Origin: Nannocystis sp. RBIL2
Lineage (GTDB): Bacteria; Myxococcota_A; Polyangia; Nannocystales; Nannocystaceae
Assembly: GCF_026626745.1 (NCBI RefSeq)
Contig: NZ_JAPNJW010000002.1
Span: 1,382,151-1,446,150 of the forward strand
DNA length: 64,000 bases
Direction: 5' to 3'
The notes under the pieces were generated by a model, which had not been told where the DNA came from, ran no database searches, and saw only the letters and a program-made list of their open reading frames with translations. Made by a program: the position numbers and the translations under genes. Below are positions 53,850 to 60,001 of the stretch, piece by piece (the stretch's first letter is position 1; every line of letters begins with the position of its first letter).

Positions 53850-54183
53850 GACCGGCGTCGGCACGGACGAGGAGCGCGGCGGAGAGGCGCACCTGGATCA
53901 TCTCCGGGTGCGCCGGGCTGAGCTCGAGCTCGAGAACCTCGACCGCGCGCGCGAGCAAGCCTTCGCGCGTGGGGCCGGGGTCGGTGGCGACGGCGAGGTT
54001 CATCAAGGTATAGCCGACCTCGCGATGCTCTCGCCCGAGCGGATGGCCTCGGCCTCCGCGCCGCCGCGGTCGCCTGCGAGAGGCCGATGTAATTCCGAAT
54101 GAAGATGAGCCCACAGCCCCGTGAGCTCTCTCCCCTGGCCCCACGTCCGTGCGAAACTTTTCGACACAAGGAGACAGACACAT
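53850..54183 (-). pseudogene. Degenerate TPR-repeat remnant, 3' end cut by the IS66 end
   Basis: LGREHREVGYTLMNLAVATDPGPTREGLLARAVEVLELELSPAHPEMIQVRLSAALL resembles TPR_10/12 units (LG.eHP.va.tLnNLA). Frameshifted upstream. Confidence 0.3.
54046..54181 (+). promoter_or_regulatory. AT-rich box / 5' leader module, copy 1
   Basis: 54046-54108 is identical to 58335-58397 and contains the box GCCGATGTAATTCCGAATGAAGATGA (54083-54108). CGACACAAGGAGACAGACAC lies directly before ATG 54182 (AAGGAG RBS). Confidence 0.6.
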
Positions 54184-54445
54184 GACTGCCCATAACTCGA
54201 AGGGCCCAGCCCCAATTCAGGTCCCGGCGTCCGACAGCCCGCTCCAAGCAGGAGCCACCATCACCGGTGTTATCGTCAACATCGACCACCAATCACGTTG
54301 GGTCACCGTTCACGCTGGTCTGAAGTCTGAAGCACTTATCCCGATTGAGCAGTTCTACAACGATGCTGGCGAACTGACCATCAACGTTGGGGATGAAGTT
54401 CAGGTCGCTTTGGATTCGGTTGAAGATGGGTTCGGCGAGGTCTAG
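54182..54445 (+). CDS. Chimeric small ORF: conserved leader ([13 protein letters not shown]) fused to a ribosomal protein S1 domain-1 fragment
   Basis: [87 protein letters not shown]. From LQAG onward it aligns with residues ~18-86 of E. coli S1 ([64 protein letters not shown]). Codons are A/T-rich. Confidence 0.6.
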
Positions 54446-54707
54446 CTGATCGTGCGGCGCAAGTAGCGAGGCTCGCGGGGGCTGAAGCACGGCCGATGGG
54501 CCGAGACAAGCGCTGACGCGGGAATTTGCCGTGCCGGGGGCTGCCGTGGTCAACTCCACGGCATGCTCCTACCCGTGTCCTGGATCGACTTCGTCCTCGT
54601 CGGGTTCATCGCGCTCGACGCCGCGATCCAGTGGCGCCTGCTCTGCAGGCGCTCGGCATCAAGGCCGGCCGGCCTTCTTGACGGTCCGTTTCTCCGCTCG
54701 AGCTTGG

Positions 54708-54733
54708 GCCGATGTAATTTCGGATGAAGATGG
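54708..54733 (+). repeat. AT-rich box, copy 4 (box only), upstream of the GSCFA gene
   Basis: GCCGATGTAATTTCGGATGAAGATGG, 114 nt before ATG 54848. Confidence 0.6.
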
Positions 54734-54847
54734 ATCCGATGCCGGTTGCGGTATGAAGGGAAGCGCGACAGACAGCAACACCTTCGTCGCTCTTGCGACG
54801 CCGGACCGATTGTCGCCCCCGCTCGAGCAATCACCCGAGCACCAAAC

Positions 54848-55987
54848 ATGACAATGCCCCAGCTCCCCGAGGGAAACCCCTATTCCGGTCGGCCGAAGCA
54901 CTGCTTCTGGCAGCAGGCTGTGGCGGCCTGCGCGAACGACGGGGTCGATCCGGTCGTCGCCGTCCCCTTCCACATCACGCCCAAGGACCAAGTGGCCATG
55001 GCAGGGAGCTGCTTCGCTCAGCACCTCTCCCATCTTCTGGTTGCCGAGGGCTTCACACCCCTCTTCACCGAGCGCTTCATCGGCGCGCCCGGCACGCTGA
55101 ACGAGGGCTACGGCGTCTTTCCCGCGCGCTTCGGCAATGTCTACACGGCGCGCCAGCTCCTCCAGCTCTTCGACCGCGCTTATGGCCTGTTCCGGCCGCA
55201 GGATCGCTGCTGGCCGGGGCCCCTCGGGTTCATCGATCCTTTCCGGCCACGCATCCAGGCCGGTGGCTTCCCCAGCCGGGAGACGCTGGAGGCCGACCGA
55301 GCGCGCCACTTCGCCGCCACGCGACGGATGTTCGAGCAGTCCGACGTCTTCGTCTTCACCCTCGGGCTCACCGAATACTGGGCGGCCGAGGACGGCGCCG
55401 TCTTTCCCCTCGCGCCCGGCGTGGTGAGCCCCGGCCTCGATCCGCCGGGTAGTGGGCCTTATCGCTTCGGCAACGCTGGCGTGGCCGAGGTGGTGCGTGA
55501 CATTGAGGCCTTTCTCGGCAGGCTCCGCGAGGTGAACCGCCGCGTCCGTGTCGTGCTCACGGTCTCGCCCGTGCCGCTCCTGGCCACCTTCGAGGATCGG
55601 CACGTCCTGGTCTCCACGGTCGCTAGCAAGAGTATCCTGCGCGCCGCGGTCGACGAGATCTGCCGCGCCCATGATGATATCGCCTACTTTCCGTCCTTCG
55701 AAATCATCACTGGGCCGCAGTCGCGCGGGCGCTTCCACGGCCCCGATCTCCGCGAGGTGACGCCGGAGGGCGTGGGCTTCGTGCAGGCGGTCTTCCGCCG
55801 TCACTTCCTCGACCTCGGCGCGGGACAGGCGGAGGCCTCCGTCGTGCCGGCGCCTGCGCCAGAGGGTGACGCGTCCGATCCCGACCTCGCCGGGCGAGCA
55901 CGCCGTTACGCCACGCTCGCCCGCGTGATCTGCGACGAGGAGGCCATCATCCACCCCGGTCCGGCCGGCGGAGCAACGCGAACATGA
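54848..55987 (+). CDS. GSCFA family protein
   Basis: Part of ORF 54746..55987 from ATG 54848. The AMAGSCFAQHL motif and overall layout fit the GSCFA family. Confidence 0.8.
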   Translation: MTMPQLPEGNPYSGRPKHCFWQQAVAACANDGVDPVVAVPFHITPKDQVAMAGSCFAQHLSHLLVAEGFTPLFTERFIGAPGTLNEGYGVFPARFGNVYTARQLLQLFDRAYGLFRPQDRCWPGPLGFIDPFRPRIQAGGFPSRETLEADRARHFAATRRMFEQSDVFVFTLGLTEYWAAEDGAVFPLAPGVVSPGLDPPGSGPYRFGNAGVAEVVRDIEAFLGRLREVNRRVRVVLTVSPVPLLATFEDRHVLVSTVASKSILRAAVDEICRAHDDIAYFPSFEIITGPQSRGRFHGPDLREVTPEGVGFVQAVFRRHFLDLGAGQAEASVVPAPAPEGDASDPDLAGRARRYATLARVICDEEAIIHPGPAGGATRT

Positions 55988-58118: not shown

Positions 58119-58334
58119 CTTCATCGTCACTCGCCGAGCCGTCGCGCGCGCCCGCTAGGACACGACCGCGCCGCGTCCAGAGCGCCGGCTCGCAGCCCTC
58201 GCGCGTCAACCCCTCCCGCGTGCAGCGAGGCCGCCCTCGCCCTTGAGTTTCACGATTGGTTAATCCTTGCGCCGGATCCGAGAGTACGCCCGCGTCCCGC
58301 CGAGCACGGCCCGCGCGCCGGCCTCGAGCTGGAT

Positions 58335-58645
58335 AGCCTCGGCCTCCGCGCCGCCGCGGTCGCCTGCGAGAGGCCGATGTAATTCCGAATGAAGATGAAT
58401 CCGCCGCCGGCGGGAGTATCACCGTGCGCGGGACGACGGGTTGTCCCGCGCTCCCCCACACCGTGGCCAGCTCCAGCCAAAGAGCCCTTGCGCCCTCTGG
58501 CGCTCCGGCGGTACGGCGCCGCTTCTGCTACAGTCACTCCTGGGTCAAACGACCTCGGGGACCCACCACCACCATCACATCGCGCCGCGGTCACGCAACG
58601 TTCGAACCAGGCGGGCAACGCGCCTGCCAGCAAGGAAACAGACAC
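58335..58645 (+). promoter_or_regulatory. AT-rich box / 5' leader module, copy 2
   Basis: Box at 58372-58397, a 248-nt variable spacer, then AAGGAAACAGACAC before ATG 58646. Confidence 0.6.
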
Positions 58646-59029
58646 ATGACTGACGTTAACTCCAAGGGCCCGGCCCCAACTCAGGTCCCAGCGGACATGA
58701 CGGAGAAGCCCCCCGAGACGACGGCCGAAGTCCCAGAGCAGATCAAGCCCGACACCGTCGTTGCCGACGCCCGCGACAAGCTGCTGGCAGCCATCGGCGC
58801 CGAAGCCCAGCACCTCGCGGAGAAGTCCGCCGGCCAGGCATCCACCGCCCTGGCGGAGCTCGCACACGCCTTTGCCCTGGTGACCAGCCCCAACCCCGCA
58901 GCCGCCGGCTTCACCGCTGGTCGGCGATATGTGGAGGAGCTCGCCCCGCCTAACGGTTCTCCCATTGGCGATGACTACATCGTCATCGACGTGCCCAGGC
59001 CGGTCATCACCTACTATCCCCGTACCTGA
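58646..59029 (+). CDS. Leader-family protein (MTDVNSKGPAPTQVP...), helical ADARDKLLAAIGAEAQHLAEKSAGQASTALAELAHAF segment
   Basis: Part of ORF 58424..59029 from ATG 58646. Its first 15 codons and the helical segment are shared with the 59447 ORF. Confidence 0.55.
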   Translation: MTDVNSKGPAPTQVPADMTEKPPETTAEVPEQIKPDTVVADARDKLLAAIGAEAQHLAEKSAGQASTALAELAHAFALVTSPNPAAAGFTAGRRYVEELAPPNGSPIGDDYIVIDVPRPVITYYPRT

Positions 59030-59315
59030 GGCCAGAACTGCGCCTGCGCAAGGCCGCGGCGGGCATGGCGAATCAGTCACCGCCCCAGAGCACGGGGCGG
59101 GATAAGAAGTCGCGGCCCCACTGGACTGCAGGTCGGGAACACCAACTACATGATCACCAAGGCCAAAGAACAGACCCGAGATCCGGGCCCGGAGCTGCGA
59201 GCCCGAGCCTGGTCATTCGGCGCGCAGCGCGTGACGGGAGGCATGGCGGGCGGCCTCGATCTGCACCGGCTCTGGGGAGCTGCCTTAGACGGTGGAGACG
59301 GACGCGCGCGCGCTC

Positions 59316-59446
59316 GCCGATGTACTTCCGAATGAAGATGAATCCGGCGCCGGTGGGAGTATCAGTGCTCCGGCAAGGTCCCGTGAGCGGCTCGATTCCC
59401 CCCTGGCCTCACGCCTGTGTGAAACTCGACACAAGGAGACAGACAC
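59316..59446 (+). promoter_or_regulatory. AT-rich box / 5' leader module, copy 3
   Basis: Box GCCGATGTACTTCCGAATGAAGATGA at 59316-59341. CGACACAAGGAGACAGACAC lies before ATG 59447, alignable to copy 1 with indels. Confidence 0.6.
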
Positions 59447-60001
59447 ATGACTGACGTTAACTCCAAGGGCCCGGCCCCAATTCAGGTCCCGGTGGCCGAC
59501 AGCGCGATCCCGGAGGCCGAGGGCGGCCCTGCGGCACCCACCTCGAACGCCGTCGCCGACGCCCGCGACAAGCTTCTGGCAGCCATTGGCGCCGAAGCCC
59601 AGCTCGTTGCGGAGAAGTCCGCCGGGGATGCGTCCAAGCCGCTCGCGGAACTTGCCCGCGCCTTCAACAATGTGACCATCAAGAACATGATCACCGGTAC
59701 GTCGCAAGCGGACGTCGCCCTGCTCGTGGTGCCTGCAGACCGGGGAGGATTCGAGGGCGCCTTCGCGCGTGAAACCCAAGTGAGGCTGTTGACGGCCATC
59801 GGCGGCGAAGCCCAGCACCTCGCGGAGAAGTCCGCCGGCCAGGCATCCACCGCCCTGGCGGAGCTCGCACACGCCTTTACGCTAGTAACCAGCCCCAGCC
59901 CCGCAGCCGCACGGATCGCGCTCGCGCCCGCAAGCGGCCTCACATTGATGAACGAAGTGGCGATCGACGGGAGTGTGACGGTCACGGTTAGATATCTCTG
60001 A
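59447..60001 (+). CDS. Leader-family protein with duplicated helical segment interrupted by an eEF1A/EFL-like fragment
   Basis: [15 protein letters not shown]...ADARDKLLAAIGAEAQLVAEKSAGDASKPLAELARAFNN-VTIKNMITGTSQADVALLVVPADRGGFEGAF-ARETQVRLLTAIGGEAQHLAEKSAGQASTALAELAHAF. IKNMITGTSQAD is identical to eukaryotic EF-1alpha (bacterial EF-Tu has VKNMITGAAQMD). Confidence 0.55.
   Translation: MTDVNSKGPAPIQVPVADSAIPEAEGGPAAPTSNAVADARDKLLAAIGAEAQLVAEKSAGDASKPLAELARAFNNVTIKNMITGTSQADVALLVVPADRGGFEGAFARETQVRLLTAIGGEAQHLAEKSAGQASTALAELAHAFTLVTSPSPAAARIALAPASGLTLMNEVAIDGSVTVTVRYL

Follow-up and report, generated by a model that had tools for sequence, protein, structure and literature searches.

In polymorphic toxins of the Rhs and CDI type, a conserved 5′ part is followed by swappable 3′ parts. 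Orphan cassettes located nearby keep a conserved stretch, which permits in-frame homologous recombination, and the repertoires are strain-specific and tied to mobile DNA. In the cyanobactin precursor PatE, in cyclotide precursors and with NHLP/Nif11 leaders, repeated recognition segments surround hypervariable ones. RiPP and propeptide precursors may have parts derived from unrelated housekeeping proteins, and the NHLP/Nif11 leaders stem from housekeeping enzymes. Rickettsia palindromic elements (RPEs) are selfish repeats which are placed in frame within protein genes, their hosts being intact and functional resident genes. PE/PPE and WXG100 proteins, which are expanded in actinomycetes, combine a small helical hairpin with highly variable extensions. 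Transposons may carry passenger genes: Tn3-like elements of Xanthomonas carry effector genes (PMC4337579), and TA pairs are passengers of Tn3-family transposons (PMC7157771).

The window analysed here (64,000 nucleotides of Nannocystis sp. RBIL2) contains three predicted genes, L1 to L3, which comparison of their parts identifies as a tandem group belonging to a so far undescribed family of small, modular proteins. We consider it rather probable that the explanation applies as a whole, namely that L1-L3 belong to a mosaic family which varies by recombination, share an upstream box and use a scaffold for display. The predicted genes and their parts are:

54168-54173, plus strand: ribosome binding site (RBS) of L1
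54182..54445, plus strand: L1, 87 aa; leader, then S1 fragment
58577..58645, plus strand: ancestral 5′ UTR of L2, with homology to the UTR conserved among actinobacterial members of the family, and with RBS AAGGAA at 58632-58637
58646..59029, plus strand: L2, 127 aa; leader, module (58766-58882), tail (ELAPPNGSPIGDDY…)
59433-59438, plus strand: RBS of L3
59447..60001, plus strand: L3, 184 aa; leader, module, EF-1α-type fragment, module, tail
59558-59668, plus strand: module 1 of L3
59669-59782, plus strand: EF-1α-type fragment of L3
59783-59890, plus strand: module 2 of L3

According to a preliminary description, the ORFs diverge completely behind the leader, which is fused to unrelated downstream sequences. 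This does not hold for L2 and L3, which can be aligned over 243 nt (78%) and have a 126-nt module in common, present once in L2 and duplicated in L3 (93% identity to the L2 copy). L1 alone diverges from the other leader ORFs, after codon ~21. Nor are the downstream sequences unrelated, as they represent interchangeable pieces of a mosaic family: the L2 tail is also present in Streptomyces (P0003, L001, L018) and the L3 tail recurs in Streptomyces L009. The NCBI annotation of L2 (P0001) begins at an internal Met. The piece between the L3 modules has a profile match to EF-1α (E 2e-5) and corresponds to EF-1α residues 98-133 at E 3.5e-6, while EF-Tu reaches only E >= 0.05.

L1 has no module and belongs to the family by its UTR, RBS and leader only, like module-less Streptomyces relatives (L004 660-983, L061 5451-5846). 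From codon 21 (nt 54242), it represents residues 18-86 of domain 1 of Pseudomonas-type ribosomal protein S1, the N-terminal 17 residues being replaced by the leader. The S1 profile matches at residues 16-81 (E 2.5e-21); L1 is not a full multi-domain S1, as it covers only positions 16-81 of the ~560 in the model. Its S1 piece is 88% (aa) and 84% (nt) identical to Pseudomonas rpsA, and its GC3 of 0.58 resembles that of the donor. S1-like DNA extends beyond the TAG stop of L1, which looks like decay.

In a set of 1.84 billion representative proteins, the family accounts for 192 clusters, almost all from Actinomycetota and mostly Streptomyces, but it also occurs in Nannocystis, a Gram-negative myxobacterium. 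Members have a conserved 5′ UTR and RBS, a disordered N-terminus carrying a motif, the module or modules, and interchangeable pieces of 10-250 aa, which are placed between modules or as tails. The N-terminal motif is (R/K)GPAPIxVP in Nannocystis and in a Streptomyces/Kitasatospora subgroup, and QQIPAxIxV in most other members. The module is a two-helix hairpin of ~40 aa (DARDKLLAAIGAEAQ…LAELARAYALV; consensus DARDKLLAAIGAEAQxVAEKSAGQASAALAELARAYALV). Module-bearing proteins have one to five copies (one in 130 proteins, two in 23, three in 1, five in 2), and the median length is 121 aa. In the scaffold model, pLDDT is 79-89 for the helical hairpins and 41-55 for leader, EF piece and tail. The scaffold has no match in Pfam, NCBIfam, PHROG, PADLOC or PDB, and we found no published description of such a family.

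Upstream of the three genes, and once more within the region, a 26-nt box (GCCGATGTAATTCCGAATGAAGATGA) is found. A mismatch scan of the window gave four copies, all on the plus strand:

54036-54082, plus strand: block A of unit 1, 47 nt, directly 5′ of box 1, 97% identical to unit 2
54083..54108, plus strand: box copy 1 (unit 1), no mismatch, 5′ of L1
54708..54733, plus strand: box copy 4, three mismatches, 5′ of the GSCFA-WcbI-GT4 operon
up to 54754, plus strand: block C of copy 4, 3′ of box 4
54848-55987, plus strand: GSCFA (PF08885, Pfam), first gene of the operon 54848..58118
55984-56871, plus strand: WcbI (PF18588, Pfam), same operon
56880-58118, plus strand: GT4 glycosyltransferase, same operon
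58325-58372, plus strand: block A of unit 2, directly 5′ of box 2
58373..58398, plus strand: box copy 2 (unit 2), no mismatch, 5′ of L2
58399-58421, plus strand: block C of unit 2, directly 3′ of box 2
59316..59341, plus strand: box copy 3 (unit 3), one mismatch, 5′ of L3
59342-59364, plus strand: block C of unit 3, directly 3′ of box 3

The preliminary description had noticed this A/T-rich box, and it indeed stands out, with a G+C content of 42% in a window of 70% and with no match expected by chance (100 shuffles). Its four same-strand copies are confirmed, with one start corrected from 58372 to 58373. Three are followed by RBS and leader, the ATGs being at 54182 (L1, gap of 73 nt), 58646 (L2, 247 nt) and 59447 (L3, 105 nt); the fourth precedes the GSCFA/WcbI/GT4 operon by 114 nt, as had been described. 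A conserved 5′ unit stands before differing coding sequences, which ordinary whole-gene paralogy does not account for, in agreement with the earlier view.

The 5′ unit is a patchwork of five blocks, each common to a different subset of the four copies. Units 1 and 2 are 97% identical in blocks A and B and alone share the upstream 47 nt, and the identity between units shifts by block (97%, 94%, 85%, 71-78%). The RBS/start region, in unit 2 even the whole ~70-nt UTR, is homologous to the 5′ UTR of the actinobacterial gene family, with 17 of 18 nt identical to Streptomyces locus L004. By this homology, the leader is the N-terminal motif of the mosaic gene family, and RBS plus leader are the predicted ancestral gene start. 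By block comparison, copy 4 seems to have lost its start codon, and GAAGGGAAGCGCGACAGACAGCA, which follows its block C, may be a decayed RBS/start region.

The box itself was found neither upstream of actinobacterial family members nor, contrary to what a dispersed element would suggest, in any of 185,579 species (one genome per species, with the source genome outside the set). Its 20 metagenome matches are all at chance level, with low G+C and flanks without similarity. An RNA structure, which had also been envisaged, is not indicated: folding stability around the box is not unusual on either strand (z-scores -1.05 to +0.74), the hairpin of the family-UTR consensus is not a notable structure (-4.1 kcal/mol, covariation term -0.08), and Rfam gave no match at E <= 1 on both strands of 53000-61000. 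A tool covering σ70 only found no -35/-10 hexamers with 16-18 nt spacing in 53800-60200. We infer that the box is non-coding and specific to the lineage, a segment located 5′ of the ancestral UTR and common to four neighbouring transcription units. Most likely, albeit with low confidence, it is a shared regulatory segment, a candidate for a common promoter-proximal or operator sequence.

We give hardly any credence to the box being a coding relic, either of a decayed minus-strand TPR gene, as had been proposed, or of a small DUF4224-type gene on the plus strand, of which it would be the 3′ end. To the left of box 1, the minus strand looks TPR-like by eye, but Pfam gave no family for the minus-strand ORF 53821-54183 at E <= 0.01, TPR included, and sequence upstream of the box is common to units 1 and 2 only. 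The three variable box positions are all third-codon positions, both in plus frame 2 (M-Y/stop-F-R-M-K-M) and in the minus frame I-F-I-R-N-Y-I-G, and a metagenomic DUF4224 gene (L042) ends with MYFRMKM over the box bases. However, the L042 match is one of the 20 chance matches, the plus frame has a TAA stop in three of the four copies, DUF4224-like sequence is upstream of none, and G+C content around the box shows no codon-position periodicity. A coding origin is thus largely refuted already.

The box, RBS and leader had also been interpreted as a portable expression/leader module or the end of a mobile element, which would move together and generate fusions. A conserved 5′ unit with varied downstream sequences is certainly seen, as one such unit precedes four different sequences within 6 kb, with the close similarity of units 1 and 2 in blocks A and B and with IS66 fragments on both sides of the region. 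In addition, Streptomyces family members ride on Tn3 transposons. In S. californicus (L061), two relatives are located between tnpA and tnpR, within Tn3 repeats, and a third directly adjoins the terminal repeat. Tn3 fragments adjoin a family gene in L001, L002 and L014. Tn3 sequences are present at a minority of loci only, and the repeats are confined to L061 and L014; some family loci are near linear-plasmid ends. The autonomous, mobile part of the interpretation is not supported. In the window, the box lacks an inverted partner or second end (no inverted copy at <=3 mismatches, no inverted repeat that takes it in), no Tn3-type terminal repeat occurs within the window, and the box is absent from the 185,579 species genomes. 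RBS, UTR and leader are vertically homologous to parts of the gene family, and random landing predicts out-of-frame tails, of which none were seen. We regard an autonomous cassette as highly unlikely.

The pieces of the mosaic family have many parents. In relatives they derive from flagellin, EF-Tu, EF-G, uL14, IscS, secretin, VgrG, the RHS core, the end of OmpA, RRM and baseplate proteins. Several parents are missing from the host lineage (Pseudomonas-type S1, archaeal/eukaryotic-type EF-1α, flagellin, secretin, VgrG). In L012 and L015, the module is located inside a flagellin C-terminal domain. Tails are re-used (45 of 156 share exact 7-mers), also between proteins that are less than 50% identical. 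Because roughly one piece in two lacks a recognisable parent, 'conserved-protein fragments' may cover the detectable subset only.

Such a collection might be recombination debris, an IS66-flanked graveyard where end-joining or illegitimate recombination stitched unrelated gene fragments behind a duplicated promoter and start, the ORFs being incidental and non-functional. Consistent with this are the IS66 fragments on both sides, the block-mosaic 5′ units, the apparent loss of the start codon in unit 4, and L1, which retains donor composition and has S1-like DNA passing its stop. The family is strain-specific and patchy, with cluster sizes of 1-2, which means little vertical conservation. However, when 43 non-redundant pieces were subjected to a frame test, the native frame matched 24 NCBIfam families and each of the five other frames none. 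The dN/dS is 0.14-0.17 for the EF piece, 0.24 for the L2 tail and 0.09-0.32 for the module, values which extend across phyla, with near-saturated dS (0.4-1.3); it is 0.15 for the S1 piece, whose low value in comparison with Pseudomonas might stem from constraint acting in the donor lineage and not in Nannocystis. The order module, EF-1α piece, module is preserved in Nannocystis, Kitasatospora and several Streptomyces, and the longest ORFs (809 aa) remain open through five modules. Since pieces occur in the parent frame only and are under purifying selection, they appear to have been retained as peptides, and we consider debris quite unlikely.

It is very unlikely that the proteins are RiPP-like or polyprotein precursors, in which leader and module would serve for enzyme recognition and the pieces would be released or modified cores. 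The architecture would fit: a conserved N-terminal part with hypervariable C-terminal parts, variable segments between repeated conserved ones in multi-module members, and several paralogues at one locus. Housekeeping-derived parts also have a precedent in NHLP/Nif11 precursors, but there it is the leader and here the variable part. The mosaic family lacks linked maturation enzymes: across 39 loci, no modifying enzyme, RRE protein, protease or transporter is recurrent, nor is any other conserved partner gene (enzyme, secretion system, immunity gene), and a radical-SAM gene was found at a single locus, 8 kb from the family gene. The pieces are far longer than RiPP cores, the largest (70-250 aa) taking in whole folded domains (S1, RRM, flagellin D0/D1), and they are not Cys/Ser/Thr-rich.

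Other described systems resemble the mosaic family in part. A conserved N-terminal part followed by variable C-terminal cassettes that recombine, by which polymorphic toxins are recognized, is also found here, as are nearby cassettes that keep a conserved stretch, which would allow in-frame exchange, strain-specific repertoires and a tie to mobile DNA; one piece, the RHS-core end, even provides a link to Rhs. Unlike Rhs and CDI, the family has no toxin domain, immunity gene or trafficking domain (neither toxin nor immunity domains were matched by Pfam or PADLOC in L1-L3 and family members), its proteins have ~120 rather than >1000 aa, and fragments of housekeeping or envelope-machine proteins make up its variable parts. 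With RPEs it shares a ~120-nt repeat, translated to ~40 aa, in unrelated coding contexts. As a difference, the module is constrained at the amino-acid level, and its 'hosts' are fragments, often of proteins that the organism lacks. As Tn3 passengers, family genes lie within or beside Tn3, but at a minority of loci and as a new type of cargo. The hairpin with variable extensions recalls PE/PPE and WXG100 proteins; neither sequence nor fold matches, however, the WXG and YxxxD/E motifs are absent, and no ESX genes were found near family loci. Nannocystis, in which the mosaic family also occurs, is not known for type VII secretion. Family proteins have no signal peptide, and no known export route is shared by the Gram-negative myxobacterium and the Gram-positive actinomycetes.

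We propose that new combinations arise by recombination within the conserved segments (upstream block, leader, module), so that the reading frame would be kept and unit identity would vary block by block. The helical module would be a scaffold or linker presenting flexible peptides which copy interaction segments of other proteins. That the function is display of mimic peptides, used as mimics, decoys or in a dominant-negative manner, is a guess. It is doubtful, although a degree less so than the alternatives above, that the family represents a class in which a recombining helical scaffold, spread by Tn3, carries foreign interaction-critical segments as dominant-negatives or decoys. If this were true, the mimicked segments would be S1 domain 1 with its N-terminal helix, the GTPase switch regions of EF-Tu, EF-G and EF-1α, flagellin D0/D1, secretin, the VgrG spike, and the C-termini of uL14 and IscS. 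The decoys would then serve in competition, predation or defence, directed against essential or envelope-machine proteins of other organisms, and Tn3-type transposons would spread the repertoire between soil actinomycetes and a predatory myxobacterium.

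The preliminary description had taken the repeated AT-rich box, ribosome-binding site (RBS) and leader for a portable expression module or the end of a mobile element. This was partly right: the repeated 5′ regions exist, and the entity that underlies them is a protein family. We consider it highly probable that the three leader-bearing ORFs of the window (L1, L2 and L3) belong to an undescribed, mobile, cross-phylum family of mosaic small proteins, the variable parts of which are fragments of other proteins that are in frame and under selection. No published description of this family was found in the literature.

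A database search with L2 returned homologues in Streptomyces, Kitasatospora and Embleya, which are small and carry the label "hypothetical protein". Their alignment consists of a variable N-terminus with the motif GRGPAPIxVP or EGIQQIPAxIxV, a conserved module of about 40 aa (DARDKLLAAIGAEAQxVAEKSAGQASAALAELARAYALV), and unrelated tails. An exhaustive profile search of 1.84 billion representatives yielded 192 family clusters, which contain only 1-2 sequences each, so that each strain has its own versions. In a one-genome-per-species scan, 36 family loci were found, all from Actinomycetota. The 156 proteins examined have a median length of 121 aa; the module occurs once in 130 of them, twice in 23, three times in one and five times in two. 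The (R/K)GPAPIxVP N-terminus is found in 6 members and the QQIPA type in another 68, and one Streptomyces array also has ORFs beginning with MSDNTPNSKGPAP…. As the (R/K)GPAPIxVP motif is also present in Streptomyces members (e.g. MTDSTTAEQATVNSRGPAPITVPP, to be compared with the Nannocystis leader), the "leader" is a family N-terminus.

The conservation extends into the 5′ untranslated region (UTR). About a dozen actinobacterial members have …CTGCGACGCTCTGnCCAGGTCGGTAgtGGGCTGACCAG-CAAGGAGACA…ATG in common, and the conserved motif was located in the 70 nt upstream of the start codons at loci L001, L004, L007, L017, L018, L021, L025, L031, L039 and L061. At L004, CAAGGAGACAGAGACATG matches CAAGGAGACAGACACATG from the window in 17 of 18 positions, and about 70 nt 5′ of the L2 start codon can be aligned throughout with the actinobacterial UTR. 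Gene and UTR thus have a common ancestry across the two phyla. In the actinobacterial UTR motif, a short hairpin (GGTCGG…CTGACC) directly precedes the RBS; it shows a few G·U to G-C changes and negligible covariation. The sequence ATTCCG was considered as an upstream motif in common with Streptomyces, but it is not enriched and its occurrences are codons for Q-I-P-A.

In the window, the 26-nt box has four copies on the same strand, as had been reported, and no copies occur in shuffled sequence. Its G+C content is 42%, compared to 70% for the window.

54083, plus strand: box, no mismatch
54708, plus strand: box, 3 mismatches
58373, plus strand: box, no mismatch
59316, plus strand: box, 1 mismatch

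The RBS and leader common to three units were found again at the start codons at 54182 (L1, unit 1), 58646 (L2, unit 2) and 59447 (L3, unit 3), and the box of unit 4 indeed lies upstream of the GSCFA/WcbI/GT4 operon. The 5′ units are a patchwork of five blocks, each of them common to a different subset of units: A (47 nt upstream of the box, 97% identical between the two units that have it), B (the box), C, D and E (RBS and leader).

Unit 1: blocks A, B, D, E
Unit 2: blocks A, B, C, E
Unit 3: blocks B, C, D, E
Unit 4: blocks B, C

The ORFs had been thought to diverge completely after the leader, but this does not apply to L2 and L3, which can be aligned over 243 nt and share a module of 126 nt; this module is duplicated within L3.

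The box was not recovered outside the window: a one-genome-per-species scan of contigs gave 0 copies in other genomes, and the 20 metagenome matches are all due to chance, so that it cannot be considered a widespread element. One metagenome match (L042) prompted the idea that the box is the 3′ end of a DUF4224/excisionase-like gene. No DUF4224-like sequence is found upstream of the window copies, three of the four copies have a stop codon in that frame, and the resemblance is a coincidence. An origin from a decayed TPR gene, which had been proposed as an alternative, found no support from Pfam or TPR profiles. Neither box nor UTR appears to be a structured RNA (no Rfam match, no stable fold, negligible covariation). 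No σ70 promoter was detected in the box, hand inspection of both strands revealed no TAnnnT, and the box has no inverted partner, no codon-position periodicity and no actinobacterial counterpart. It is located further upstream than the family UTR (in unit 2, 247 nt separate it from the ATG). The distance between box and start codon is 73-247 nt, in four consecutive same-strand transcription units on a 6-kb island. Position is what remains after the negative tests, and on this basis the box may be a promoter-proximal or operator segment which the units have in common and which was acquired by the Nannocystis lineage.

From each box back to the stop codon of the ORF before it (53805, 54445, 58118, 59029), the distance is 255-287 nt, which is surprisingly regular. 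A putative uORF starts inside the box (ATGAAGATGA, M-K-M…; 54100-54185 and 58389-58649) and ends, in units 1 and 2, at a TGA which overlaps the leader ATG (ATGA); the frames are not the same in units 3 and 4. As the uORF has no RBS, this pattern may be fortuitous.

Coding of L2 and L3 on the plus strand is supported by codon-position G+C (GC3 0.78-0.80). The composition of L1 is foreign (GC 56%, GC3 0.62). NCBI has annotated L2 (P0001) as a protein of 110 aa that begins with an internal Met (MTEKPPE…), so that its leader (region 58646-58696) is absent from the public protein record; the annotation of L1 (P0157) and L3 (P0002) includes the leader. The AlphaFold model of L3 has two confident helical hairpins, corresponding to the modules (pLDDT 79-89), with leader, EF piece and tail at low confidence. 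The scaffold matched no solved structure or profile, and the PDB sequence profile gave nothing; fold assignment was attempted but led only to generic helical bundles (best E 0.75). Pfam, NCBIfam, PHROG and PADLOC returned no family for it.

Many of the variable pieces could be traced to a diversity of parent proteins. L1 consists of the leader and positions 16-81 of the ribosomal protein S1 model (E 2.5e-21). Between residues 18 ("LQAG") and 86, it is 88% (aa) and 84% (nt) identical to Pseudomonas rpsA. It has a donor-like GC3 of 0.58 and carries a "D-x-Q-x-RWVTV" insertion which, among the S1 sequences retrieved, is otherwise confined to the three closest Pseudomonas-type ones. The same S1 piece is found in a Nocardia protein (P0056), followed by a module and an EF-G fragment. 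In L3, two modules enclose a fragment which resembles residues 98-133 of archaeal/eukaryotic EF-1α (E 3.5e-6), while bacterial EF-Tu scores far worse; this arrangement recurs in Kitasatospora (P0004) and at the Streptomyces loci L027, L029, L033 and L012. Other members contain a near-complete flagellin D0/D1 with the module inserted before the C-terminal helix, and Streptomyces does not have flagella (PMC10746217). Further pieces are derived from VgrG/gp5, RRM, secretin, the EF-Tu N-terminus, uL14, the IscS C-terminus, a baseplate protein, and the ends of an RHS core and an OmpA domain; a piece resembling EF-Tu domain II was recognized by eye. The tails of L2 and L3 are both found again in Streptomyces, and 45 of the 156 tails have exact 7-mers in common with the tail of another member. 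Members are currently mis-annotated as "flagellin domain protein", "phage baseplate protein V" or "S1 RNA-binding domain protein".

Random capture of filler DNA would favour wrong reading frames five to one. We scanned all six translations of 43 non-redundant pieces (2,063 aa) against NCBIfam; in the native frame, 24 families representing nine kinds of protein were matched, while each of the other five frames gave 0 families, and random capture was rejected on this basis. When Nannocystis and actinobacterial copies were compared (dS 0.4-1.3), the S1 piece had a dN/dS of 0.15, the EF piece 0.14-0.17, the L2 tail 0.24 and the module 0.09-0.32. For L1, part of the constraint could stem from the donor lineage. 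The EF pieces of the family share VVPA…GGFEGAF where the solved EF-1α sequences compared have VVSARKGEFEAGM; such features, absent from the latter, indicate constraint after capture. In L1, rpsA-like similarity runs several codons past the TAG stop (54443-54500), which stands where S1 has Lys87 (AAG), so that the captured fragment was longer once and was shortened by a nonsense change.

No recurrent enzyme or partner gene was found beside family genes. ORFs of about 470-690 aa upstream at six Streptomyces loci were considered as a conserved partner, but they form a polymorphic family of their own, in which an N-terminal domain of about 450 aa (ERLERxR…DEIYW…CWExD…NDDDL) is conserved while the C-termini, made of hemopexin or β-propeller repeats, are exchangeable. 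A phage origin was also considered: no phage matches were obtained, and essentially none from PHROG and PADLOC. Tn3 transposase fragments adjoin the family gene at three loci (L001, L002, L014). Six Streptomyces plasmids carry family genes, mostly within a few kb of the record end; the two inspected are both linear. In S. californicus, tnpA and tnpR of a complete Tn3-type element enclose two relatives; a third directly adjoins the terminal repeat of this element, and all three have a 5′ flank of about 100 nt in common. On the S. californicus plasmid (L061), terminal repeats are found at 3669-3717, 4311-4359 and 9902-9950. The near-end repeat has been duplicated together with about 75 nt of the tnpR 3′ end, with a family gene and its 5′ flank between the two copies, and this unusual arrangement suggests insertion or recombination right at the Tn3-type end. 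At L014, inverted Tn3-type repeats (3674-3722 and 4443-4491) are only about 770 bp apart and about 1.5 kb upstream of the family gene, possibly a miniature Tn3 derivative. The window has no Tn3 repeat; its units are bracketed by IS66 fragments.

51603-52172, minus strand: inverted ORF further left, resembling an IS66 transposase N-terminus by eye, no Pfam match
52612-53805, plus strand: C-terminal part of IS66 transposase (DDE_Tnp_IS66, IS66_C), left of the island
60675-61088, plus strand: IS66 Orf2 (TnpB_IS66) fragment, right of the island

Lectin-like or β-propeller proteins are encoded near family genes in both phyla.

Window (Nannocystis), 48514-50148: jacalin-domain protein
L003, 9107-9619 and 10478-10984: RicinB lectins flanking the family gene
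L004, 1573-3645; L007, 701-2692; L008, 2617-4614; L014, 6579-7988; L018, 3413-5476 (minus strand); L024, 3-1730: polymorphic hemopexin/β-propeller family

Genes for eukaryote-like Ser/Thr kinases are present in the window (40442-42064 and 62418-63998, the latter fused to an AAA_16/STAND NTPase), and a Pkinase gene is also near the family gene at the Streptomyces locus L001. In three genomes, cold-shock-domain genes are no more than a few kb away from family genes (L001, 10641-10841; L007, 11331-11594; L010, 8280-8543; L026, 10294-10515), which may be a coincidence or represent another RNA-binding piece that is encoded separately.

The family resembles several known systems. Polymorphic-toxin orphan modules also have a conserved 5′ part and exchange cassettes via retained homology, but the family comes without a toxin or immunity gene. 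In multi-core RiPP precursors, conserved segments likewise flank variable ones, but the family lacks maturation enzymes. The in-frame 40-aa repeat is reminiscent of Rickettsia RPEs, but the host genes of the family are not intact. The mode of carriage resembles that of Tn3 passenger genes, but Tn3 repeats occur only in a minority of family loci. With regard to function, we tentatively favour a helical scaffold that displays mimic peptides, a doubtful reading even if it is the most likely one.

If these proteins are made and active, bacteria would maintain libraries of short peptides which are copies of parts of conserved proteins from other organisms, and would reshuffle and trade them; to our knowledge, no such system has been described. 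Natural inhibitors, dominant-negative or decoy, of the ribosome, of translation factors, of flagella and of secretion machines could then be sought in a testable way. Should the family turn out to have no function, it is still a clear natural case of "exon-shuffling-like" in-frame protein assembly in bacteria from unrelated gene fragments, with cross-phylum transfer and measurable selection.
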